A program made the translations under genes and the position numbers. DNA of 64,000 nt. Source: Thermoplasmata archaeon. GTDB lineage: Archaea > Thermoplasmatota > Thermoplasmata > Sysuiplasmatales > Sysuiplasmataceae. The notes beneath the pieces were generated by a model, which was not told where the DNA came from, did no database searches, and was given only the letters and a program-made list of their open reading frames with translations. The stretch lies in NCBI GenBank assembly GCA_021806165.1, contig JAJZXY010000001.1, positions 12,836-76,835 of the forward strand, read 5' to 3'. Shown one piece after another: positions 22,905 through 61,460 of this stretch. Position 1 is the stretch's first letter; each line of letters begins with the position of its first letter.

Positions 22905-23618
22905 ATGAGTTGCATGCCAGCAAGAAACACTAGGGCCGGGTACCAGGACGCCTTCTGGAGCAGCCAGTACAGCACCGACCCTGAATTCTTCGGCCGGGTC
23001 GAGAGCCCGTTTTCCCACTGGGCGATGCGCCTGATGAAGCGCGACGGTGTTTCCAGCGCTCTGGAGCTCGGATTCGGATACGGCAGGGATACCGGCTACC
23101 TGCTCGCTTCGGGCATAAGCGTGACGGGCGTGGAGGTTTCGTCAAGGGGGTATGAACTGGCGGCCGAGCGGTTCAGAGGCGTTCCAGGCGTGAGGCTCCA
23201 CCATTCTGATGCTCTGTCCTTCCTGCGCTCCATGGCCGGCGCCAGCATGGACGCAGTCTATTCAAACCTGTTCTTCAACATGCATTTCACCAGGGCAGAA
23301 CACAGGGCGCTTATGCTCGAGATAGAGAGGGTCCTGTCTGAAGGAGGACTCAATCTCTTCTCCGCCAGATCGACGAATGACCCATGGTACGGGAAGGGCA
23401 GGCAAGTCGGACCAGGCACGTTCGACCATTCACCGCAGGGGACGACCATGGTCTACTTCAGCGCCAGGCTTGTTAAAGGCATAACGCCCCCTGGGCTGAA
23501 GACTATCCTCCTGGAGGAGAGGACCGAAGGTGAGGGCGACTTCCCGATATCTGTCCTGTATGTCTGCCAGAAGAGGTCGGCTGTACGCGGGAATGCTGTG
23601 CCTACTCCCCTTCCCTGA
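22905..23618 (+). CDS. class I SAM-dependent methyltransferase
   Basis: Motif I is LELGFGYGRD and the Rossmann-fold spacing is conserved. Confidence 0.7.
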   Translation: MSCMPARNTRAGYQDAFWSSQYSTDPEFFGRVESPFSHWAMRLMKRDGVSSALELGFGYGRDTGYLLASGISVTGVEVSSRGYELAAERFRGVPGVRLHHSDALSFLRSMAGASMDAVYSNLFFNMHFTRAEHRALMLEIERVLSEGGLNLFSARSTNDPWYGKGRQVGPGTFDHSPQGTTMVYFSARLVKGITPPGLKTILLEERTEGEGDFPISVLYVCQKRSAVRGNAVPTPLP

Positions 23619-23649
23619 CCTCGTTTGTCCCGTCTGGAATGAGGCCGTG

Positions 23650-23790
23650 GGAGTCACTGTGCGCCTCGTTGGCGCCTCCCTGTCCTGCGCCTCTGAAAGG
23701 CAGAAGATGGCACCTTTCCTTTCATCCACCCAGTACTTGAGGAATCTGGCGCCGTGCTTGTGCTGCACCTTCAGATCCTCGGCGTGGGCG
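23650..23790 (-). pseudogene. DUF4242-like gene remnant (internal fragment only)
   Basis: The minus-strand translation AHAEDLKVQHKHGARFLKYWVDERKGAIFCLSEAQDREA matches the central block of DUF4242 proteins. It is bounded upstream by a stop and downstream runs antisense into the methyltransferase gene. Confidence 0.3.
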
Positions 23791-23973
23791 CGGCGACGTC
23801 CTCAAGGGTGGCCCTATTCAGATTCTTGTGCACATCGATGTACCTGGGCATAAGGGAGTGAATTCCCGATCGGGGTTAAGATTGTATTTCCATGGTCTCT
23901 CAGTACGGGCGGTGATTGTATCACCCTGTAGGTCGCCCAATGATTTGCACCTGCCCTGCAGGTATGAAATAGG

Positions 23974-24883: not shown

Positions 24884-26776
24884 TCAGCTGCCCCTGGTAG
24901 ACAGGCGGTAATACACCAACGTCCCGTTCCTCGCAGTCAGTGAGTTGTTGACGGCAGCTTCCTTCAGGTAGTAGACTGTTGTCTCTCCTCCGGCTGTTGC
25001 AACGTCCTTCACCACCTTGGTCGTGTATGCATGGTTGTAGGAAAGGCTGCTTATCGAATTCTCGGGTGTCAGCGTCCCCACGAACAGGCCGTTGCCTTCG
25101 ACCTTTGTGTAGCTCCTGTTGTAAGAGTTCATGACTGAAGAGCCATGCTGCGTGTTCGTGTGCATCTTGACGCTCGTTGTGATGAGCCTAACCTGCGTCA
25201 CATTGAAGCCAATGACAATCTGGATAGGATTCGTCAGTATGACATCCTCAATTGCAGTGCCGTTTATCCTGTAGTAAGCATGGATCTTTGCAAGTGCGGT
25301 GGTTGTTGTTCCTTGAGACTTGAATGCACTGTAGTAGGTTGAATTGATGAACTCCCTCAGCGAGAATGTCTGTGAGTACACCAGCCCGGTCCCGTAAGGT
25401 GTGTTTGCTACTATGTTGAAACTCGGGTCATATTCGCTCGAATTGGCAAAGAACGCCACGCTCTGGGTATAGTAGGAGCTCATGCTCGTGGACCCGGCAG
25501 TCGACATTCCGAACGAATGCTGGAACTCCCTGACAGTCTGGCTGTCATTCAGGTAGGCAGCGCTGGCGGGAATGCTCTCTGTTGCCGTGTTTGTCTGAGG
25601 CGTCTGCACGTAGCTGCTGGAATAGCTGAACGTGTTGCTTTCCACCTGCCCGGCAACTGCACCGCCTGTGGTGTTGACCATGAAGTTCAGTGCCACCCTG
25701 ATCCAGAGGTTTTCATCATTGACAACCTGTATTGTGACACTCTGCTTCCCATGCAGGAGTGAGAGGTAGGGGTCGAGCGATATCCTGTGCGGAGGATAGA
25801 GCACTGCGCCAATACCCAGTACGGGCTGCCACAGGAAGAGGTCACCGCCTCCAGTCTGCACATTCGGGTAGGGCTGCACTGTTGCAACGAGCGTGCCGCC
25901 TATGAACACCCTGAACTCCCTGAAGGGGGGCTGCAGCGTATACCAGAATTCGTCATTTCCGTTCTGCTGCTCATAGAGGTTCATGTAGGCGTTCTTGACG
26001 CCGGTGGGGAACTGCACGGCTGTTGTCCGCGAGACGTTGAAGGGTATGGGCACATTGTTGGGGAAAGCATTGGAGGGGGTGGGGAAGTTTGTGGAGTTGA
26101 ACGCGGGTATTACCTGGCTGGGGAACTGTGCCGCAGGACCCTTCATTGTGAATGTGAACCATACAGAGAGGTAGGACGAGTATCCGGGGTTGAACTGGGG
26201 GCAGGTGGTGAACACGCTCTGCTGCCCTGTCAGTATGCTGGCGTACTGCGTCACGTTCTCAGTCACGCTGGTGTTCTCAAGCTCAACCGTGTTACCGGCA
26301 AGTATCTGGACATTGCTGACTGAGACAATGAAGCTTGTATCGAATGGGTTGGACACATACTGGTCAAAGAATGTGACAGTTATTGCAGAGAACCGCCCTG
26401 TGGGGAAGTCTACCTGCCTGGTTACGGATGACGTTGTGGTATGCGAGACAAAGAAGCTGTCCACTGCAACAACCACAGTCTTTCCACCGCCGCTCTGGGG
26501 TATGGGCGGCGCCATACTGCCCCTGACAGGATTGTCGCGGGCAAGGTTGCTTATCCTGCCCGCGTGAAAAGAGCTCCCCTGGGACACTGCCGCCTGAGCG
26601 GATAGGTCGGATATGCTCCCTGAGGATGCATAGGGTGTGGCCGAGGCTGCGGGCCCGGCTGCTGTCGAAACGCCTGCCGAAAGCGTTCCGGATAGCATAA
26701 GCACGGCAACTGCAACGGCAAAAGGCACAAGCAACTTACCAGTTCTGGATGGACCATTTACATCTGACAATTTCAT
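24884..26776 (-). CDS. large secreted surface glycoprotein (S-layer/cell-surface-like), very sequon-rich
   Basis: It has an N-terminal signal/TM (LLVPFAVAVAVLMLSGTLSA) and about 630 aa of Ser/Thr/Asn-rich beta-type sequence with dozens of N-x-S/T sequons. No enzymatic motifs were found. Confidence 0.5.
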   Translation of the reverse strand: MKLSDVNGPSRTGKLLVPFAVAVAVLMLSGTLSAGVSTAAGPAASATPYASSGSISDLSAQAAVSQGSSFHAGRISNLARDNPVRGSMAPPIPQSGGGKTVVVAVDSFFVSHTTTSSVTRQVDFPTGRFSAITVTFFDQYVSNPFDTSFIVSVSNVQILAGNTVELENTSVTENVTQYASILTGQQSVFTTCPQFNPGYSSYLSVWFTFTMKGPAAQFPSQVIPAFNSTNFPTPSNAFPNNVPIPFNVSRTTAVQFPTGVKNAYMNLYEQQNGNDEFWYTLQPPFREFRVFIGGTLVATVQPYPNVQTGGGDLFLWQPVLGIGAVLYPPHRISLDPYLSLLHGKQSVTIQVVNDENLWIRVALNFMVNTTGGAVAGQVESNTFSYSSSYVQTPQTNTATESIPASAAYLNDSQTVREFQHSFGMSTAGSTSMSSYYTQSVAFFANSSEYDPSFNIVANTPYGTGLVYSQTFSLREFINSTYYSAFKSQGTTTTALAKIHAYYRINGTAIEDVILTNPIQIVIGFNVTQVRLITTSVKMHTNTQHGSSVMNSYNRSYTKVEGNGLFVGTLTPENSISSLSYNHAYTTKVVKDVATAGGETTVYYLKEAAVNNSLTARNGTLVYYRLSTRGS

Positions 26777-26876
26777 ACCCCCTCTATAGTCAATGATGAC
26801 AAGTCTGCTATTCTAAACGAGTCTGCAAAGAGGTCCATGAAATAAAAAGATATCGTATTTCGGCGCACGGCCAACG

Positions 26877-27185
26877 TCATACCGCCAGCGGAGCTGTATG
26901 CCGTGCGGTGCCGGCCCTCTCTACGCGGAGGGGCCGGAGGTTCAGTTCATCCCAACCCCTCCAGGAGCCTCCCGGTCCCAGGAGGACCCACATCGGCCCT
27001 GTTGTCAGCCCGGCGACAATAAGGGAGGCGGCGGTCACTATCAGATTCTGGAAGAGGTTGAACCCGGCAGACCAGTAGAGGGCATAAAACATGATGAATA
27101 TGCACACGCCATTATGCCCAGTATCGAAACTGCCACGGTGCTGCGGGTCCTTCGTATCGCCTAAGGCTCTTCCTCCCCTTCTCAC
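26877..27185 (-). CDS. small hypothetical membrane protein (2 TM)
   Basis: An ORF in the gap between the glycoprotein and TspO has two hydrophobic helices (VCIFIMFYALYWSAGF, LIVTAASLIVAGLTTGPMWVLLG). No homology was recognised. Confidence 0.25.
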   Translation of the reverse strand: MRRGGRALGDTKDPQHRGSFDTGHNGVCIFIMFYALYWSAGFNLFQNLIVTAASLIVAGLTTGPMWVLLGPGGSWRGWDELNLRPLRVERAGTARHTAPLAV

Positions 27186-27354
27186 CCCAGAATGTTGTCG
27201 CTTCCTGCACCGGCTCCTTTGCAGCGGTGCCGCTTTCAGCTGTCATTTCTTTCGGGATTCTACTCCACCGGGAGATGAATAAGTGTTGCCTCCATAGCCG
27301 GCTTTCAACAGTTACCCGGAGGGATGCCGGGCATGTCACATCCTCCTTCACAGC

Positions 27355-27838
27355 CTAGGGGTTGAGCCGCACTATTGGAAGGTTGAGCAGCGTGGCGGCT
27401 GTAACCCATGCTATGTATGCAAGCAGCAGGTACCCCGCGCTCCTGTCTATCTCCCTGAATTCCACTATGGTTGCTGCGATGAAGAACCAGAGGAATATGA
27501 TTTCCACAAATCCGGACAGCAGCTCATGCAGGCCGAAGAATATCACTGACCAGAGAACATTCAGGAACAGCTGTATGCCGAAGAGGCCAGAGCAGTTCCG
27601 CCCCACTGGGATTTCCCCTGCCTGTCCATGCCATGTAAATGGCCGGGCCCTTGAGAAATTACAGTGATATCCACATGGGCACGAAGAGCCGGTTTGGAGG
27701 TGTAATCGGGCTCCCGACCAGACCCGCATACCATGAGCCGATCTCGCTGAAGGTGAATATCGATCCGATACCGCCTGCCCCTTCGGTGGTCGCAATGCAT
27801 GCAGCGAGCCTCCACCAGCTTATCCTTCCAATCACCAC
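27355..27838 (-). pseudogene. tspO: TspO/MBR (tryptophan-rich sensory protein) gene disrupted by an in-frame TAA and a frameshift
   Basis: The N-terminal half (GRISWWRLAACIATTEGAGGIGSIFTFSEIGSWYAGLVGSPITPPNRLFVPMWISL*FLKGPAIYMAWTGRGN) is in one frame and contains a TAA at about 27659-27661 where TspO has a conserved Tyr. The C-terminal half (LFGIQLFLNVLWSVIFFGL...LLLAYIAWVTAATLLN) is in the -1 frame after a G-run near 27597-27610. Confidence 0.55.
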
Positions 27839-28032
27839 ATCTGTCTGAAAACCAGTCTATCCCGGAGATGCGGAGTACCCTGCCCAATCAATAGATTATC
27901 CATATTACTGTAAGTATCAAGCTGTCCTCAGACCAGACCCGTGGCATGGGCTACGATGGCTGTCCAGCCGCAGGTCAACATAGTTGACAAGATTTTTATA
28001 AATTCAAGCTTATCTGTGCGTCGTGGTTCATT

Positions 28033-31099: not shown

Positions 31100-31960
31100 T
31101 ACAGCTCAGCTGTTGCGTGTATCCCCGGGGGTTATGTTCCCTATCTTGTAGAATTTCACCGCGGACGAGGGATGTACGATGCTCTGGACAACAGGTGCAC
31201 CAGGGCTCTCTGTACCTGTCGATACAGGGAGGCCCGAAACCAGGGGGTTCCCCGCGCCTGCCCCCGCTATGCAGCCCGACTGGCCTTTGCCCGGGAGCAG
31301 CGAAAGCACTCGGGACTGGCCGAAGAAGAGTGAAACAACGGACGAGACTGCGTCATCGCTATGCACACCACAAAGGCGCCGCGGGGGCCGCTATCAGCTA
31401 ACTCCTGGCGGCAGAGCCTATTGCAAGGACGACAGAGACCCACACGGCAGTGCTCATAAGGCGCCTGCAAGGAGCGCAGGCGTAAGGTAGAGCCTCTCGT
31501 GCGGGCCGTATGTCATCGTCCCTCCTACTACATCAGCCAGTATCAGCACCGTGTAAGCAGGCACTAGCGTAATCAGCGCAGCTGAAAGCTTTGCGAGGAA
31601 GACCTCGGTCCCGGAAACTGGCTTTGTCAGGAGGGACACTATGCTTCCGCTCTCAAACTCGCCTGAAATGCTGTTCATGACAGCGACAGGAGCAAAGAAG
31701 AAAAAGAAGAGGGACAGGTTCGCCGAGTTTATCACGTGGTCCGGGCTCGCTGCCACCGCCCCCGAACGTAGTTTGAAAGGATGGGTGTCAGCGCCAGCAG
31801 GAGTATGCTCAGCCCCAGAGCTGCCAGCAGCATTGCAAGGAACTTTTTCTTCCTCAGGTTCCAGAGCAGCCCGTACCTGAAAACAGTGCCCACGCGCATC
31901 GGCATGCCGCCTGAATGCACCTCCGCCCGGGCGGTCAACGGTCATTCCCCCTTCCCGCAC
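31100..31960 (-). pseudogene. ABC-2 type transporter permease gene, fragmented across frames
   Basis: The N-terminal piece MRVGTVFRYGLLWNLRKKKFLAMLLAALGLSILLLALTPIL is in one frame. The conserved block NSISGEFESGSIVSLLTKPVSGTEVFLAKLSAALITLVPAYTVLILADVVGG is in another frame and is preceded by non-homologous read-through. A poly-purine/T-run (FFFFF, about 31690-31712) lies at the junction. Confidence 0.4.
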
Positions 31961-31986
31961 CCCCGACGAGCCTTACGAATATGCCT

Positions 31987-32687
31987 TCAGGCCCACTGCC
32001 CCTCGTGTTCATTCCCAGTATCAAGCCTCCATGGCCCGTGATTTCCCTGGAGGCGATTGGCCTGATGTCTTCGCTGGCGCATGGTGGCATGGCCGCACAC
32101 CTGCTCCACCTCGTTGAGAAGGTGCGATGACATGTATATTGTCATACCCTCGCGGGCCATCCCTTTCACAAGGTCCCTGACCTCCACCATGCCGGTAGTG
32201 TCAGGCCCCTGGCTCGTTTCGTCAAGTATTACCGTCTCAGGATCATTCAGAAGGGCCTGCGCAATGGCGAGCCTCTGCTGCATCCCCCTGCTCTATTTCC
32301 CGATCAGCTCCCGCTCCCTGCCTGCAAGACCAACCATCCGCAGGAGTTCAGGTATCTGCTCCTTTCTCTGCCCCCCACTCATACCGCAGATCCTGCCATA
32401 AATGTCAAGGATTCGTATGCCTTCAGATGCTTTGGAAACTTTGGCAGCTCAGGCATGTAACCCACCCTGAGCCTTGTTTATGGCCTGTCAACGCCAGCAT
32501 CCATTCCCAGCATCACGACCGTCCCGCCATCGGCCCGGAGCAGCCCGACAAGCACCTTGATAGTGGTAGTCTTCCCCGCCTGGTTGGGTCCGAGGAAGCT
32601 GTGCTCAGTTCCCCTCTAGACCGTGATACTCAGACTGTCAACCGAGGTCAGGCTGCCGTACCTCTTGGTCAGATTCCTGACTTCCAT
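31987..32687 (-). pseudogene. ABC transporter ATP-binding protein gene with multiple in-frame stops and a 3' frameshift
   Basis: The minus-strand translation is MEVRNLTKRYGSLTSVDSLSITV*RGTEHSFLGPNQAGKTTTIKVLVGLLRADGGTVVMLGMDAGVDRP*TRLRVGYMPELPKF...GSAV*...SGGMQQRLAIAQALLNDPETVILDE...SSHLLNEVEQVC. At least four stops (TAG, TAA, TGA, TGA) interrupt an otherwise collinear ABC ATPase. The Walker A is degenerate (GPNQAGKT). Confidence 0.6.
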
Positions 32688-32797
32688 GGCGTAATCCATT
32701 ATGACATGACAAACGGTTTTTACGATGCGGTGTGCGGATTAACGTTGGGTCTATACTCCCCTCATCCCGGCACGGGGGGCGTGTGTGGTGCAGGCAG

Positions 32798-33931: not shown

Positions 33932-35050
33932 GTGTCACAGGAAATGGTGCGGGCATTCGGAGCAGCCTTCCTCTTCTCCAACAGCGCTGCCATCCTGACC
34001 TACGCCTTCTCTTCAAACGAAAGGAGCATGGCTTTTGGCATAAACCAGGTGTCAACTGTTGTCGGATGGGTTACAGGCCTGATCCTCGGCGGCTTCCTAA
34101 CAACCCTTCTTGGATGGCGTTCCATATTCTGGGTCAACATACTGATAGGCATATTCGCCACAGTCTGGTCCCACTACAGGCTCAGGGAGATGGCCGAGCT
34201 CGAAGGCAGGTCCGGAATAGATTTCAGCGGCAACATAGCATTCGCAGGCAGCCTGTCCCTGCGGCTCCTTGGTGTCACAGCCTATTCCCTTGGCGCCCTC
34301 GCAGCAGAAACATCCTCCATAATGATGACAGGAGGGGGCGCCATGCTCCTTCTCTTCTTCCTGCTTGAAAAGAGGGTGAAGCACCCCATGTTTAACCTTA
34401 CACTGTTCAGGATAGGGCTGCTCATGGCAGGCAATCTTGCAATCTTCCTCAATGCGCTCTCGCGCGGCGCAGTCACCCTCGCGCTCGCCTTCTAACTGCA
34501 GGGGCCAAGCATGAGACTGGGCCCTTTGCAGGCAGGCATATTCCTGATACCCATCTCCGCGTCACTTGTCGCCTTCGGACCTGTGAGCGGCATACTATCG
34601 GACCGTTTCGGCGCAAGGTGGATTTCCACCGTCTGCCCTGTTGTCTCATCCGCCGGTTTCCTCGACCTGACACTGACCCTGGGAAGGACCATAACGTTCC
34701 CGGCCATTTCGCCGGCACTGGAGCTTGTCGGCAGCGGCACGGGCATATTCGCATCCCCGAACAGGTCATCCATCATGAATTCCGTCCCGGCCATCAGGCG
34801 CGGCATCGCGTCGGGAGTCAGCACAGCGCTGTTCAATGTGGGCATGACGTCCATCATGGGCCCTGCATTCCTCATAATGACAAGGACCACGCCGCTTCCC
34901 GTGCTTGAGCAGATATTCGTGAGTGCAACCCCCTCAGGCAGCTTCTCCTTCCTGGATTTCATCAATTCCATCGACCTTGTGCTCTATCAGTCAACTGCCT
35001 TCCTGCTGGTGGCAATCATCCCGTCCATCCTGAGGGATAGGGGGAGGTAA
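33932..35050 (+). pseudogene. MFS transporter (DHA2/EmrB-like) gene, 5'-truncated and interrupted by one in-frame TAA
   Basis: Translation begins inside the transporter (GWRSIFWVNILIG is the TM5 region), so TM1-4 are absent; the convergent phosphoesterase gene ends only 45 bp upstream. A TAA at 34493-34495 splits ...TLALAF*LQGPSMRLGPLQAGIFLIP... within a single reading frame. Confidence 0.6.
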
Positions 35051-38761: not shown

Positions 38762-40003
38762 CTACTTTCCAAAGGCAGCCCGCTCTTCGAGGAGTCGCTT
38801 TATCTCATCCTCCCCGAAACCTAGCTCCGCGAGCACCTGGGTTGTATGCTCTCCTAGCACCGGCGGAGGGAGCCTGAGCGTTCCAGGAGTTCCGCTCATG
38901 GCAAAAGGAGTCCCGATGCTCCTGAATGCGCCGTAAGCTGGATGGACCATCTCCGCAATCATTCCCCTTGCCTTCACCTGCGGATCCTTCTCGACGTCGC
39001 TCATGCCGATTATGGGTGCGGCGGGTATGCCTGCGCCCTCTAGCCTCCTCAGCGCCTCCGATGTGCTCATCGATGCGAAGCGCGGCTCAAGCCTTGAATT
39101 CAGGTGCTTCCTGTTCTTCACCCTCTGCGGGTTCTTCTCAAGCAGCGGATCGGCTGTCAGCTCAGGCATATCCATTGCGCTGCAGAAGTCACCCCACAGC
39201 TTCTCGCTTCCCACTGCCACAGCTATGTACCCGTCGGATGTGGCATAGACCTGGTAGGGGGCAATGCTCGCATGGGCTGATCCGAGCCTCTCGGGATTCT
39301 TTCCAGTCGCGAAATAACCCGTGGCCTGGTGGGTGAGCGTGAGCATGTTCGCATCGAGCATCGAAAGGTCGATGTACTGTCCCCTGCCGGTCACACCCCT
39401 GCTGAACAGGGCTGAGAGCACCGCTATGGCCGCGAAGAGGCCCGCTGTAATGTCTGTGATGGGCACTCCGAACTTGACCGGTGGCCTGCCCTCCTCCCCC
39501 GTCAGCGACATCAGTCCGCTGGTTGCAAGCACGGTGAGATCGAAGCCAGGCTTTGAACTGTAGGGGCCCGTCTGGCCAAAGCCTGATATGCTGCAGTAGA
39601 CCATCCTTCCGTTGCGCTCCGACAGCGTTTCATAATCCACCCCGAGCTTCCTGGCGACCCCCGGCCTGAAGTTCTCTACAACGACGTCCGCCTTCTCCGC
39701 GAGCCTTGCAAGCACTTCCGCGCACCCCTCCTTCCTCAGGTCCAGCGCCACGCTGCGCTTGTTCCTGTTTGCGCTCATGAAGTAGGTCGACATGCCTTTT
39801 ACTTCAGGAGGGGCCCAAAGCCTGGTGTCGTCGCCCTTCTCCGGCTCCACCTTTATCACATCCGCTCCAAGATCCCCGAGGAGCATTGTGCAGAACGGAC
39901 CGGACATCGCCCTGCTGAAATCCAGAACACTTATTCCTGAGAGCGCCCCATCCTTCGGTTCATTCGCCGGCGGCATGTGTGCGGTCATCTTATGCACCTT
40001 CAT
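38762..40003 (-). CDS. CoA-transferase family III (CaiB/BaiF) protein
   Basis: LSGISVLDFSRAMSGPFCTMLLGDLGADVIKVE...GDDTR is the canonical family III N-terminus. Confidence 0.85.
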   Translation of the reverse strand: MKVHKMTAHMPPANEPKDGALSGISVLDFSRAMSGPFCTMLLGDLGADVIKVEPEKGDDTRLWAPPEVKGMSTYFMSANRNKRSVALDLRKEGCAEVLARLAEKADVVVENFRPGVARKLGVDYETLSERNGRMVYCSISGFGQTGPYSSKPGFDLTVLATSGLMSLTGEEGRPPVKFGVPITDITAGLFAAIAVLSALFSRGVTGRGQYIDLSMLDANMLTLTHQATGYFATGKNPERLGSAHASIAPYQVYATSDGYIAVAVGSEKLWGDFCSAMDMPELTADPLLEKNPQRVKNRKHLNSRLEPRFASMSTSEALRRLEGAGIPAAPIIGMSDVEKDPQVKARGMIAEMVHPAYGAFRSIGTPFAMSGTPGTLRLPPPVLGEHTTQVLAELGFGEDEIKRLLEERAAFGK

Positions 40004-40024: not shown

Positions 40025-40420
40025 TCAATCCCCCGATTCGAACTTGTCAGGGAGGAGAGATTCAACCTTCACCCTGACAGGCCTGCCATCCCTTTCTATT
40101 ATGACAGATGCACCGGGCCCGTAGTCGCTCAGGAGCTCCCTGCACATACCGCATGGCGAAACCACATGCACATCCTGGGGTGCTCCATCCTCCCCCGGCG
40201 AAATCACGGCCACGATTGTGTCTACCATGTCCCTGCTCCTGCTCCCCATCTCCCCTATGGCCACCGCCTCGGCGCAGAGCGCTATCCTTGCCACGTTTGC
40301 CTCGACATGCACTGCAGTTTACACAACCCCGCCGTTGCTCAGGAGGGCCACACCCAACTGGTGTCTGTCCTTGAGGTACATACTGCCTATGACCGCGCGT
40401 ACCTCAGAAACAGGTCTCAT
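40025..40420 (-). pseudogene. cdd: cytidine deaminase gene interrupted by a single in-frame TAA
   Basis: The minus-strand translation is MRPVSEVRAVIGSMYLKDRHQLGVALLSNGGVV*TAVHVEANVARIALCAEAVAIG...VSPCGMCRELL...ESLLPDKF. It is a collinear Cdd with the CAE and PCGxCRE zinc motifs. The TAA (about 40319-40321) sits where Cdd has a conserved aromatic (Tyr/Phe) residue. The downstream 95-aa ORF starts at GTG. Confidence 0.6.
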
Positions 40421-40529
40421 GTCGCCTTTGCCAAGTTCTGCCCGCATAACATCCGCTGGCAGGTAGGCAACTGCAGGTGTTAAACTATGCCGAAGTGAAA
40501 TGCGGGTAAGAGCCGACTGTGCAGGCTTC

Positions 40530-49861: not shown

Positions 49862-50467
49862 TTGACAAAACGATGGATGAAGGAGAGGAAGAACGACAGG
49901 TACTATGTCAAGGCAAAGCGCGAACACTACAGGAGCAGGGCCGCATACAAGCTCCTCCAGCTCCAGGAGAAATTCGGCATACTGTTCGCGGGCATGAGAT
50001 GTGTTGATCTCGGTGCAGCCCCGGGCGGTTGGCTGCAGGTTGAACAGGAGATCGCAGGACCCGGGGGAAGGGTGCTTGGCATAGACCTGGCGACCATAAG
50101 ACCGGTAGAGGGCGTTACACTCCTGAAGGGGGATGTGACCTCGCCCGCAACAGCTGCGAAGTTGCTGGATGCGGCTGGAGGGAAGGTGGATGTGCTGCTC
50201 TCAGACATGTCACCCGACATAAGCGGCAACTACTCTCTCGACCATGCCAGATCCGTTGACCTTGTCAGGACCGCCCTCGCTCTTGCCCGGCTGCTCCTGA
50301 AGGAAGGGGGCAGCATGGCCGTCAAGCTCTTCGACGGCGAGCTGACGCACGAACTGCTGGAGGATATGAAGCGCTCCTTCGGGAGCGTGAGGGTTTCGAA
50401 GCCCGAGGCCAGCCGGAAGCAGAGCTCCGAGATCTACATAGTGGCCGGGGATTTTTTCAGCCGCTGA
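49862..50467 (+). CDS. rlmE: 23S rRNA (uridine-2'-O)-methyltransferase RlmE/FtsJ (RrmJ)
   Basis: YRSRAAYKLLQLQEKFGI...VDLGAAPGGWLQV...VLSDMSP match the FtsJ family. Confidence 0.9.
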   Translation: MTKRWMKERKNDRYYVKAKREHYRSRAAYKLLQLQEKFGILFAGMRCVDLGAAPGGWLQVEQEIAGPGGRVLGIDLATIRPVEGVTLLKGDVTSPATAAKLLDAAGGKVDVLLSDMSPDISGNYSLDHARSVDLVRTALALARLLLKEGGSMAVKLFDGELTHELLEDMKRSFGSVRVSKPEASRKQSSEIYIVAGDFFSR

Positions 50468-50749
50468 GGCACAGCCCGAAAGCGGCTTCCCCTGCGGCAG
50501 CCGCAAACCCCATGCCGAACTGCGTAAGCCTGCCGGGTCTGTCAAAATCCAAGCAGGTGCGGTCGCTCCTTTCGGCTATGCGCAGGTAGCCGCGCGCCCT
50601 TTCTACATCCGCACCCGGTCCCGGCGAGGCAATGGCATCCCTTGCACGGTCAGTCAGCCTCCACATACTGTTCTTCGCCTCGCTCCCCTCCCAGGTTGGG
50701 AACGAATGGTCATGCGCCCAGCTCGTCTCGCATATGTGCCCAGCCGCCC

Positions 50750-51626
50750 GCTCTAAACCACGCGGGAGGCTTCGCCGAGCGTGGCGGTCCTCAGCCCCGA
50801 GCTTCCAGCGAGCGGGCGGCAGAGTGCCGATAGGTGGTCCGCACCGTTCATCCAGTTTTCGCCGTCAGGCGCGATAACCACGCAGCGGAGCCCCCTCCTG
50901 TCCGCCAGCATTGACAGCATCTCCCTTTCCATGACCCGGGCTTCTCCATGGGCGGGGAGAGTGAAAATGCATTTGAAATCCAATTGTCCCTGAATAACAG
51001 GAGCGGCCCTCCCCGAAGCTTGAATGGCATGCCTCCGCCCTCCCCCGCGGAGAGCGCACTTCCGTCAAGGACGGTGTAACTGAACCAGGCCTTTCCGGCC
51101 GCGGCGGCTGCATCGGACGAGAATGCGTACTCGGGGGACCACAATTCAGCCACATTCCTTCCGCCGTAGCCAGCTGTCTCCTCCATCCCTGCCTTCAGCT
51201 GCCGGGCCAGGTCGTCAGCAAGACCATGCCTGGCTAGAAGGGGCATTATGCGATGATAGTGAAGCTGGGAAATTATCCCGATGTTGCAGCCGTTGTCTCC
51301 CTGTATCCCCTGAGCAGGCGGGAGCTGTTTTCCGCCTGCTCATCCACATCCACATTCTCAATCCCGGGCCCAACGGAATACCCGCGTGGGGCTGCGACCT
51401 GCCAATGCCTGAGGAGCGTCGGGCTCAGGTTGTAATTGGCTCTGTAGTGCACATTACTCGTTATGGTGTCGAGATGCCTCTTGTAGTTGCGGGCATTGTC
51501 GAAAAGCGAGCTGAACTGGAAGCATCCGTCCCTGTCGATATACCATGGCTGGTGGTGATGGAACACCACCGAGACGAGCATCCCGTCCATTTTATCCGCC
51601 GGTATAAAAAAATTCAGGAAGTACAT
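50750..51626 (-). pseudogene. glycoside hydrolase family 57 gene broken by frameshifts
   Basis: The N-terminal 117 aa (LVSVVFHHHQPWYIDRDG...ANYNLSPTLL) are in one frame. The nucleophile-region piece (NVAELWSPEYAFS...FSYTVLDG) is in a second frame starting before 51246. Further fragments lie in a third frame (50753..50983). The 3' boundary is uncertain. Confidence 0.5.
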
Positions 51627-52193: not shown

Positions 52194-53153
52194 TCACTGC
52201 CTGCCGCTCTGTGCCGACTTCAGTGCTGTCACAGTCTTCATCACGGTGCGCAGCATCTCGCTGCGCACAGGCTCCTCGTACTGCGACTCGGACTGGATGT
52301 CTATGCTTATCACATAACCGGAGGCCGTTGTTTCGGAGACGAGCACCACGGGCTCGGTCCCGGGCATGACTTCCTTCAGCCTGGCTATATCCCTGACGAC
52401 AGCATCTATCACGACGGCCGGGTCCAGACTCCTGTCAACCTCGTACTTGGCCCTGACCTTCATCCTCCCTCTTCTCGAATTTACGAGTATGAGCGCCTGG
52501 ATGAATATGCCGGCTGGAACCTTGATCAGCCTTCCATCGTCCATAACCATGTCCACGTAGAGGAAGCCGACGTAGTCGACCGTGCCTGTGAAGCCGCTGA
52601 CAAGGAAGTCGCTGGAATAGAACTTGGGCGGGTAGGAAGGGGCAAGCACGCCGAACTGCCACGTTGAGAATGTGATGCGCTCCCCTGCAGACACGGGCCT
52701 TGCGAGCACAAGGACAAGCCCGGCGAAGAAGTTGGCCAGCACCGTCTGCGATGCGAGCCCGAGCACAATGGCCGTGAAGGCGCTTCCGACGATGAGTCCC
52801 TGGAGGTCAAGGTGGAGTGTTCCGAAGACAGCGAAGGCCAGGACCAGGTAGGCAATCAGCGTAAACGAGTATTTTATCGGCACTGCCTTGGCCATGCCTA
52901 TCCTCGGCACCAGCACATCCATTATCACCCGTCCAAGCAGGGTGATGAGTGCATATCCTGCTGCAAGCACCACGACGGCGACTATGGTGGACTGGTAGCT
53001 GACAAGCTGAGTCGAGTACTGCTTCAGTATGAAATCATTGAGAATCAGGTTGAAGGCGTAGAGCAGCGCAGCAACGACAAGCACCATGAGCGCCACACCC
53101 CCAAGAGTGTGCCTCCTCCCTCCGCGAGCAGATCCATCGTCCGCCATGTCCAT
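52194..53153 (-). CDS. mechanosensitive ion channel (MscS family)
   Basis: Three N-terminal TM helices are followed by the MscS beta-domain (GERITFSTWQFGVL..., VDYVGFLYVDMVMDDGRLIKVPAG). Confidence 0.8.
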   Translation of the reverse strand: MDMADDGSARGGRRHTLGGVALMVLVVAALLYAFNLILNDFILKQYSTQLVSYQSTIVAVVVLAAGYALITLLGRVIMDVLVPRIGMAKAVPIKYSFTLIAYLVLAFAVFGTLHLDLQGLIVGSAFTAIVLGLASQTVLANFFAGLVLVLARPVSAGERITFSTWQFGVLAPSYPPKFYSSDFLVSGFTGTVDYVGFLYVDMVMDDGRLIKVPAGIFIQALILVNSRRGRMKVRAKYEVDRSLDPAVVIDAVVRDIARLKEVMPGTEPVVLVSETTASGYVISIDIQSESQYEEPVRSEMLRTVMKTVTALKSAQSGRQ

Positions 53154-53244
53154 CCCACGAAGTCAAACATTACCGCAACTTATCCTTTCCCCTCGCTCCC
53201 CCCTCAGTCTGCAATGCAAACATTTAAGGGAGCATGCTGCTCTC

Positions 53245-53523
53245 ATGCGGAAAGCAAGGGTGTTGGATTTGCCGTCTGAGAAGGAAACCCAGTTCGAGAG
53301 GCTTTGGGAGGGCGAAACCCCCTCCGGGAAGAACGAGTCAAAGGCGCTGCAGTTCAGGCAGAAGATGACCATGGCGCTCATACAGAAGAAGGCTCAGGTC
53401 ACCAAGGAGAATGCAAAGGCCTACTGGATGGGGACACTCCGTTCACTCGCCGAACCGGCACAACCCGAGGGCGGGGATTACAGGTCAAGGGGGCCAGACC
53501 GCCAGGGCGGAAGAAGAAGGTAG
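53245..53523 (+). CDS. hypothetical small basic protein
   Basis: The ORF MRKARVLDLPSEKETQFERLWEG...KKAQVTKENAKAYW was not recognised. The upstream part of the track ORF is antisense to MscS. Confidence 0.25.
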   Translation: MRKARVLDLPSEKETQFERLWEGETPSGKNESKALQFRQKMTMALIQKKAQVTKENAKAYWMGTLRSLAEPAQPEGGDYRSRGPDRQGGRRR

Positions 53524-53610
53524 GCGGCCAGCGTACCGATCCGCACCGTGGATAATACGACTGATCACTTTTTATAAGCGGCGCGTCGTTGTTATCCGAA
53601 GAGTGGCAAG

Positions 53611-53730
53611 TTGACTGAAAAGGAAAGACTCAGGATGCGTTATCTCCTGAAATCTGTTCTGAACGTGGACATACAGGCTATTGCCGACAGGACTGTCAGG
53701 GACATGGACTACCAGGTCCTTTACTACTGA
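53611..53730 (+). CDS. possible small ORF (about 39 aa)
   Basis: (L)TEKERLRMRYLLKSVLNVDIQAIADRTVRDMDYQVLYY sits in a 230-bp gap with a TTG or internal ATG start. Support is weak. Confidence 0.15.
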   Translation: MTEKERLRMRYLLKSVLNVDIQAIADRTVRDMDYQVLYY

Positions 53731-53773
53731 GCCCATATCCCTCTAAATGGTTTGCCGGGGATTCCCCCCGGAT

Positions 53774-54232
53774 TCAGGCATGCGCCGGAGCCGCCTTCAG
53801 CTGCACGAACTTTGTCGTGTAGAAGCGGAGGTGCAGAAGCGCGACGCCGTGCGCACCGTCATGCCCCGCTATTATCACGTAGTTTCCGTTCTGAAGGTTG
53901 AAGTACGCTGCGCCGTTGGAGCCCGTAACTGCTTTCGCCACCGGTGTCAGCGTTATTGTTATGTTTCCGCCGGCATCCGTCGTGTGCGAAATGCTGTACA
54001 CTGTGACGTTCGCATCCTGCACCGCGATCCTGTGCCCGTTGACCTGGGCCCATACGACAACCTCGAGATATTCTCCGTTGATCTGCCCCTGAGTCACAGA
54101 CGGAGACGCGCCCGGTGCAGCCGCTTCAACCATGCTGACAGCTGCGATGCCGCCGATCGCAAGCAGTGCGATCAGGGATATCGCAAGCAGCTTCTTCCTG
54201 CCCGACTTGTTGCTCTTCTGTGGTGTTTCCAT
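53774..54232 (-). CDS. secreted/membrane-anchored hypothetical protein (beta-sandwich-like)
   Basis: The start was chosen at METPQKSNKSGRKKLLAISLIALLAIGGIAAVSMVEA (a signal/anchor). The remainder is beta-rich with two sequons. Confidence 0.35.
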   Translation of the reverse strand: METPQKSNKSGRKKLLAISLIALLAIGGIAAVSMVEAAAPGASPSVTQGQINGEYLEVVVWAQVNGHRIAVQDANVTVYSISHTTDAGGNITITLTPVAKAVTGSNGAAYFNLQNGNYVIIAGHDGAHGVALLHLRFYTTKFVQLKAAPAHA

Positions 54233-61362: not shown

Positions 61363-61460
61363 GCGGGAGTAGCTAAGCTCGGCCAACAGCGCAGGACTTA
61401 AGATACGATTGAGAAATTCTGTCCCGCAGGGGTCCGTGGGTTCGAATCCCTCCTCCCGCA
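61363..61460 (+). tRNA. tRNA-Leu (anticodon UAA) with a 13-nt intron between positions 37 and 38
   Basis: Folded by hand. The acceptor is GCGGGAG/CTCCCGC (7/7 pairs). The D-arm is GCTA...CAGC with a GG loop. The anticodon stem is CAGGA/TTCTG (one G-U) and the loop is CTTAAG|A, anticodon TAA at about 61399-61401. The intron is ATACGATTGAGAA (about 61403-61415). The long variable arm CCC-GCAG-GGG marks a class II tRNA. The T-arm GTGGG-TTCGAAT-CCCTC has the GGTTCGAATCC consensus. The discriminator is A and CCA is not encoded. Confidence 0.8.

Follow-up and report, generated by a model that had tools for sequence, protein, structure and literature searches.

Prokaryotic unitary pseudogenes are known in which a single stop codon interrupts a gene that is intact in a close relative, with a dN/dS of about 1 and damaged genes in the neighbourhood. 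An in-frame stop at a position where homologs have a sense codon is shared by stop-codon reassignments: TAA is read as Tyr in mitochondrial code 14, and TAG is read as Pyl in Methanosarcinales and in Methanomassiliicoccales, the latter belonging to the Thermoplasmatota. Where a Tyr codon has been turned into a stop, near-cognate readthrough by tRNA-Tyr would insert the original residue. Such readthrough of UAA and UAG has been described for yeast and for human systems, not for archaea, and in human cells it is modulated by the level of tRNA-Tyr (PMC8136774).

The gene discussed here belongs to the homotetrameric cytidine/blasticidin-S deaminase family (PF00383; NF005314, PRK06848), with which it shares a length of about 140 residues, the motifs CAE and PCGxCRE and an alpha-beta-beta-alpha-beta core. 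We use Cdd as a family name; judged from sequence, the substrate, cytidine or a nucleoside antibiotic, is putative, and the true substrate of Cdd proteins of the NF005314 type may be other than cytidine. The gene lies in a stretch of 64,000 nucleotides from a Thermoplasmata archaeon, called the window in the following, and carries one TAA within its reading frame. We conclude that it is very probably an ordinary, neutrally drifting unitary nonsense pseudogene.

The Cdd locus

Translation of the minus strand of 40025–40450 gives a frame with one internal stop only, beginning with an ATG at 40445–40447 (Table 1). The preliminary description had let the gene extend from 40025 to 40420; the first of these ends is correct, while the start codon lies beyond the second. 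With X in place of the stop, the product scores 137.9 bits against the NCBIfam profile NF005314 ("cytidine deaminase", curated cutoff 131), matching it from end to end (residues 6–138 on profile positions 4–136 of 139), and 37.7 bits against Pfam PF00383 (cutoff 25). Because of these two matches the collinearity with the family is far above chance, and the earlier observation of a single frame with one TAA and both zinc motifs is confirmed. The gene is flanked by a family-III CoA-transferase gene (38762–40003) and by kdpF-kdpABC (from 40580).

Table 1. Features of the window considered in this study. Positions count from the first base of the window.
Feature	Position	Strand	Remarks
Cytidine/blasticidin-S-deaminase-family gene (Cdd), very probable pseudogene	40025–40447	minus	140 codons plus TGA terminator, collinear with the family
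Premature ochre TAA of Cdd, codon 43	40319–40321	minus	"tta" on the plus strand
CAE zinc/catalytic motif, residues 58–60	40268–40276	minus	columns invariant in homolog alignments
PCGMCRE zinc motif, residues 98–104	40136–40156	minus	columns invariant in homolog alignments
N-terminal 42-codon fragment of Cdd	40322–40447	minus	alpha-1 and beta-1 only
Residual 95-codon ORF of Cdd, GTG start at codon 46	40025–40312	minus	zinc ligands kept
TspO pseudogene	27355–27870	minus	TAC to TAA at 27659–27661 and three 1-nt deletions
EmrB/QacA-type (DHA2) MFS transporter remnant	33932–35050	plus	5' truncation and TAA at 34493–34495
ABC-2-type ATPase pseudogene	31990–32700	minus	TAG 32616–32618, TAA 32478–32480, TAG 32293–32295
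Fragmented ABC-2 permease	31454–31990	minus	downstream of the ABC-2 ATPase pseudogene
SCO4226-like remnant	about 23600–23850	minus	two frameshifts
GH57 glycoside hydrolase	about 50460–51626	minus	frameshifts; split over three frames
TAA terminator of an intact 336-aa gene	1704–1706	minus	genuine; at the shared C-terminus of homologs
Intron-containing tRNA-Leu(UAA)	61363–61460	plus	Rfam; anticodon loop CUUAAGA, long variable arm

The best match among solved structures is the blasticidin-S deaminase of Aspergillus (1WN5/2Z3J, E = 1e-10); the structures of the B. subtilis and human CDAs are weaker matches, with E values of about 1e-6 to 1e-7. The subfamily NF005314 has an H-V-E-A motif at the place where CDAs have N-I-E-N. 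Among 14 outgroup proteins, the alignment column of codon 43 contains Phe six times, Tyr three times, Ile three times and another residue twice. Thus, the position had been described correctly as aromatic with regard to the nearest ortholog, which has Tyr, but it is not a strictly aromatic position of the family.

For the structural context an AlphaFold model of the intact ortholog from a sister strain (see below) was used, with a mean pLDDT of 85 and a pTM of 0.81. The model consists of helix alpha-1 (residues 7–22), strands beta-1 (30–37) and beta-2 (42–48), the helix of the CAE motif (59–70), beta-3 (75–82), the helix of the PCGMC motif (100–109) and strands beta-4 and beta-5 (114–127). The stop at codon 43 falls within beta-2, so that the alpha/beta core is not covered by an uninterrupted ORF, and other invariant or near-invariant residues of the family have been replaced in five changes specific to the window. 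Because the TAA breaks the ORF of the core, the locus is classed as a pseudogene of the family and not as a functional member. The residual ORF that begins with GTG lacks alpha-1, beta-1 and most of beta-2, and from the model we infer that neither this remnant nor the short N-terminal product would fold or work.

Comparison with the sister strain

All close comparisons depend on contigs from two samples, the Logan contigs L002 (SRR31012007) and L169 (SRR31012008), which have about 93% DNA identity to the window and are taken as a sister strain. In both samples the Cdd locus contains an intact gene for 140 residues with TAT (Tyr) as codon 43, and its protein (P0001) is 84% identical to that of the window. 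When the two are compared, the lesion is a change of Tyr43 from TAT to TAA, in which the third base of the codon, T, has become A. Hence, the claim that Cdd was inactivated by a stop replacing a Tyr codon is borne out by the intact sister gene. With the repaired Cdd as query, no close relative was found in the GTDB species genomes or in JGI metagenome contigs; the best matches of these scans have identities of 53% (a Ca. Sysuiplasmataceae MAG) and 49%.

Between window and sister strain, Cdd differs by 7 synonymous and 24 nonsynonymous substitutions (dS 0.074, dN 0.080), corresponding to an omega of 1.08; the estimate is based on only 31 substitutions in all and on one close relative. The neighbouring KdpA shows 35 synonymous and 5 nonsynonymous substitutions (dS 0.088, dN 0.004, omega 0.045), and the first 530 codons of KdpB show 39 and 4, respectively (dS 0.107, dN 0.0033, omega 0.031). 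The contrast between Cdd and kdp in synonymous and nonsynonymous substitutions is highly significant (Fisher p = 1.8e-11). Within Cdd, dN/dS amounts to 1.6 on the N-terminal side of the stop and to 0.79 downstream of it. The DNA identity to the sister strain is 92.4% for Cdd compared with 96.7% and 98.3% for its flanks.

The 23 amino-acid differences between the two Cdd proteins were polarised with the 14 outgroups. Fifteen are derived in the window and three in the sister strain (binomial p = 0.0075 for this asymmetry), the remaining five being ambiguous. The changes derived in the window include L12P and A16V, at residues conserved in all 14 outgroups, H30Q and K125R (conserved in 13 of 14), and G53A (12 of 14). 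According to these sequence comparisons, Cdd has evolved neutrally in the lineage of the window, and has done so over more or less the entire period after the sister strain split off. The gene had been regarded as otherwise intact, with a single clean lesion; this view cannot be maintained in the light of a dN/dS of about 1 and about 15 lineage-specific replacements. Since the gene has collected about 20 substitutions per 423 bases, one nonsense change and no indel are unremarkable. Cdd thus presents both a lesion relative to an intact close ortholog and a dN/dS relaxed relative to its neighbours, as pseudogenes do.

Other decayed loci in the window

The TspO gene of the window is spread over three frames. 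Relative to the intact sister gene of 179 residues, its deletions lie within 27606–27618, 27578–27592 and 27355–27368. Homopolymer sequencing errors were considered as the source of the frameshifts and rejected, since two of the three deletions lie outside homopolymers. The TAA of TspO replaces the Tyr of the motif W-T/I-S/T-L-Y of homologs, where the sister strain has TAC. The preliminary description had located a TAA at this Tyr (given as W-T-I-L-Y) and had proposed a change from TAY to TAA in both genes; the sister codons, TAT in Cdd and TAC in TspO, agree with this. The omega of TspO is 0.46, compared with 0.14–0.15 for its neighbours.

The remnant of the MFS transporter lacks about 99 N-terminal residues in comparison with homologs of 484 residues. 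Its TAA stands at a Tyr that is conserved in 10 of 11 homologs, and several otherwise invariant residues have been replaced as well. The window differs from two public assemblies of the same strain (GCA_027345105.1 and ERZ27237490, see below) at positions 34482, 34487 and 52950 only. The first two of these changes are nonsynonymous and lie 11 and 6 bases upstream of the TAA of the MFS remnant, where the window encodes LALAF before the stop, the public assemblies LVLSF before the stop, and the consensus of homologs reads LVLVFY. Strain mixture, a consensus artefact or gene conversion may have caused this cluster of two differences.

Besides its three stops, the ABC-2-type ATPase pseudogene has one or more frameshifts, and its Walker A motif is degraded (GPNQAGKT); the stops occupy positions that are variable in homologs, where Tyr is not conserved. 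Together with the further loci of Table 1, at least six loci among the about 70 genes of the window have decayed, roughly one in ten. Cdd and TspO are intact in the sister strain, which suggests that accessory genes were recently lost in a wave in the strain of the window, with Cdd as an ordinary case. With TspO, the MFS transporter, the ABC-2 exporter, GH57, the SCO4226-like protein and Cdd all dead, the window is a modest lead for a study of genome streamlining in Thermoplasmata.

Further remnants were sought in gaps between genes. No match was obtained in a six-frame Pfam scan of 16650–17050, nor in scans of 26750–27380 (four of six frames) and 53120–53800 (plus strand only).

Intact homologs of Cdd, TspO and the MFS transporter occur on one contig of a Ca. 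Sysuiplasmataceae MAG (JBJKPR010000003.1, 67,603 bp), with identities of 53% (P0003), 58% (P0143) and 74% (P0251), respectively. The three genes may have been linked ancestrally in the clade. The nearest named relatives of the genes of the window in general are found in Ca. Sysuiplasmataceae and Thermoplasmata MAGs. Together with the genes for ArcTGT, Pth2 and Endo_dU (endonuclease V-like) and the intron-containing tRNA, they identify the organism as an archaeon of the class Thermoplasmata. About 3 kb past the 3' end of the window an EF-2 gene with an intein (PF14890, Intein_splicing; 1052 residues, contig L167, 17516–20674) comes after the genes of the ribosomal proteins S12 and S7.

Assignment of TAA in this genome

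In-frame TAAs were searched for by translating the window with TAA as a sense codon, followed by inspection of regions with short or missing ORFs. A listing of ORFs that share a frame and are separated by a single stop yielded 205 pairs and was too noisy in DNA with 57–58% GC. An in-frame TAA inside a recognisable gene was found at four places, namely in Cdd, TspO, the MFS remnant and the ABC-2 ATPase, all of which are decayed. No internal TAA was found in the 49 intact genes of the window (16,860 codons, 562 of them for Tyr). The 62 real terminators of the window comprise 48 TGA, 11 TAG and three TAA, and none of the three TAA terminators belongs to a highly conserved gene. One of them ends the gene for a protein of 336 residues, whose alignments with more than 100 homologs (about 300–345 residues) reach query residues 330–334 and the C-termini of the homologs; a DUF998 gene is also terminated by TAA. 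Because the 49 intact genes are free of internal TAA and TAA ends the 336-aa gene at its conserved C-terminus, TAA acts as a stop in this genome, and where it occurs in frame inside a gene, that gene is dead.

The 336-aa protein, which has no Pfam family, is encoded on the minus strand in the same frame as a MupG-like 6-phospho-N-acetylmuramidase (600–2714), with the TAA and four codons between them. A readthrough fusion of the 1704–2714 gene with MupG was considered and rejected, since the homologs of about 320 residues end at the TAA and none of them is fused.

ARAGORN detected tRNAs neither in the window nor in its neighbouring loci and missed the intron-containing tRNA-Leu. This tRNA was considered as an ochre suppressor and rejected: with the anticodon UAA and a long variable arm it is a tRNA-Leu, which reads UUA. 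No suppressor tRNA with the anticodon UUA was found in the 68 kb examined, where the tRNA-Leu(UAA) is the sole tRNA.

Recurrence of Tyr-to-TAA changes

The expected frequency of Tyr-to-TAA changes was estimated with a chance model based on the codon usage of intact genes, with a transition/transversion rate ratio of 1–4 and a GC-to-AT bias of 1–2. In this model a random nonsense mutation is of the Tyr-to-TAA type with a probability of 0.08–0.13. At least three such changes among about seven premature stops correspond to a nominally significant p of about 0.014–0.048, for a pattern picked after the fact and in a tiny sample. The premature stops at 27659, 32293, 32478, 32616, 34493 and 40319 comprise four TAA, two TAG and no TGA; about 22% TGA would be expected, and its absence is mildly odd, but so few stops do not permit an interpretation.

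The ratio of transitions to transversions is 45:38 in kdp and about 8:9 among the derived changes of Cdd, and transversions are simply common in this lineage. As far as resolved, the base changes behind the stops differ: in Cdd a T has been replaced by A, in TspO a C. Cytosine deamination accounts for neither of them, and 8-oxoG for that of TspO only. Consequently, the idea that oxidative or deamination damage had acted as a shared bias on both genes is not supported: the change in Cdd fits neither process, and in the ABC-ATPase pseudogene the stops are TAG, TAA and TAG.

Discussion

The history of the locus would have begun with an ancestor in which a working gene for a deaminase of the tetrameric cytidine/blasticidin-S type, 140 residues long, lay between the kdpFABC operon and the CoA-transferase gene. 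Selection on this gene would have been lost in the lineage of the window at about the time when the sister strain, with its gene intact, split off. Neutral drift would then have brought about 15 replacements and the nonsense change from TAT (Tyr43) to TAA. Translation would now end after 42 residues, and the GTG-initiated remnant of 95 residues would keep the zinc ligands, with a broken core. Presumably, the deaminase had become dispensable as part of the wider recent loss of accessory genes. We infer the order of these events, with constraint lost before the stop arose. Given the MAG source and the near-identical assemblies, the stop may be polymorphic in the population, and it could in principle be leaky and yield some full-length Cdd, as the Cys and Glu ligands are intact and indels are lacking.

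A different meaning of the TAA would be that it is read as Tyr, be it through a reassignment throughout the genome or through a tRNA-Tyr that suppresses ochre codons, which would render Cdd, TspO and the MFS transporter full-length at those codons. The TAAs of these three genes indeed all stand at Tyr positions, TAA is rare as a terminator (3 of 62), and Methanomassiliicoccales as relatives within the Thermoplasmatota recode TAG to Pyl. However, the genes concerned have decayed independently of the TAA, TspO by its three deletions of 1 nt, the MFS transporter by its missing N-terminal residues and Cdd by an omega of about 1, whereas the intact genes with their 562 Tyr codons contain none. Moreover, TAA closes the 336-aa gene precisely where its homologs have their conserved C-terminus, the fourth TAA, in the ABC-ATPase pseudogene, lies in frame with two TAGs at sites where no Tyr is conserved, and the only tRNA in the 68 kb examined is a tRNA-Leu. 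We regard such a reading of TAA as barely credible. The preliminary description had been right to dismiss recoding, although its argument that conserved genes nearby end with TAA is thin, with three TAA terminators of 62 and none of them in a highly conserved gene. Recoding is rejected more strongly here because the other TAA-bearing genes are frameshifted or truncated, the 49 intact genes are clean and TAA occurs at a conserved C-terminus. That instead the shortened GTG-initiated protein is the functional product of Cdd is extremely improbable, even though the predicted ORF of 95 residues with the zinc site does exist as previously described, with CAE and PCGMCRE kept, and gene callers list the remnant as a protein of 89–95 residues (P0002 and P0121, "dCMP_cyt_deam"). 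The elements of the deaminase core that it lacks according to the model, a length of at least 123 residues in all 120 homologs among the matches listed, save this genome's own fragment, and a dN/dS downstream of the stop that carries no signature of a constrained protein speak against it.

The TAA might also be an artefact of assembly or consensus, or a minority allele, with TAT and a functional gene in the dominant genome. The sequence stems from a MAG, and the other assemblies with the same TAA, the MAG GCA_027345105.1 (contig DAHWIL010000019.1) and the ENA assembly ERZ27237490, agree with each other at 100% of the positions compared and probably share reads. They differ from the window at three sites only in about 63,000 compared bases, and all three assemblies may be derived from one set of reads. 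Yet the base is the same in all three versions, the contigs are 195–225 kb long, the same strain contains several other pseudogenes with multiple lesions, and the 15 lineage-specific replacements together with an omega of about 1 show, without recourse to the stop, that constraint was lost. We therefore consider an artefact or minority allele very unlikely. A further possibility would add to the pseudogene reading rather than replace it: the recurrence of Tyr-to-TAA changes could be non-random, owing either to an N-to-A mutational signature at third positions or to preferential survival of alleles with an ochre at Tyr, in which near-cognate readthrough by tRNA-Tyr restores a low level of wild-type protein. 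The p value given above, the absence of premature TGA and the frequent transversions, as in kdp, are in line with it. Against it stand the tiny sample, selected after the pattern had been noticed, the different base changes in Cdd and TspO, the TAG stops in the ABC pseudogene, and the other disabling lesions of TspO and the MFS transporter, which leakiness would not rescue. On balance, non-randomness seems unlikely, and a real strain-level excess of TAY-to-TAA alleles produced by the N-to-A signature or by tRNA-Tyr readthrough rescue is distinctly doubtful. If readthrough were the cause, this would be a first sign that UAA is appreciably leaky in an archaeon of the Thermoplasmata.

The interpretation as a nonsense pseudogene has practical consequences. 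The 89–95 aa protein call is to be treated as the fragment of a dead gene and should be left out when the pyrimidine salvage of this lineage is reconstructed. The result poses no challenge to the genetic code. As a matter of method, one close relative can be sufficient to separate a gene with a single stop from a case of recoding, by way of dN/dS in comparison with neighbouring genes and of the polarity of replacements.

Relation to known systems

Unlike the members of the deaminase family, the Cdd of the window is interrupted at codon 43 and carries the derived replacements L12P, A16V, H30Q, G53A and K125R. With stop-codon reassignments it has in common the in-frame stop at a sense codon of homologs, found here three times at Tyr; in contrast to them, the TAAs of the window occur only in genes that have decayed independently, and TAA still terminates intact genes. 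Near-cognate readthrough by tRNA-Tyr differs from the present case in that two of the three genes with a TAA at Tyr are beyond rescue by it.

From the unitary pseudogenes of prokaryotes there is no substantive difference: single stop, intact close ortholog, dN/dS of about 1 and damaged neighbours are all found here, the host being an uncultured member of the Thermoplasmata known only from MAGs. For an archaeon, these 64 kb have an apparently high density of pseudogenes. Cdd itself is a fresh instance of a well-known kind, the nonsense pseudogene.
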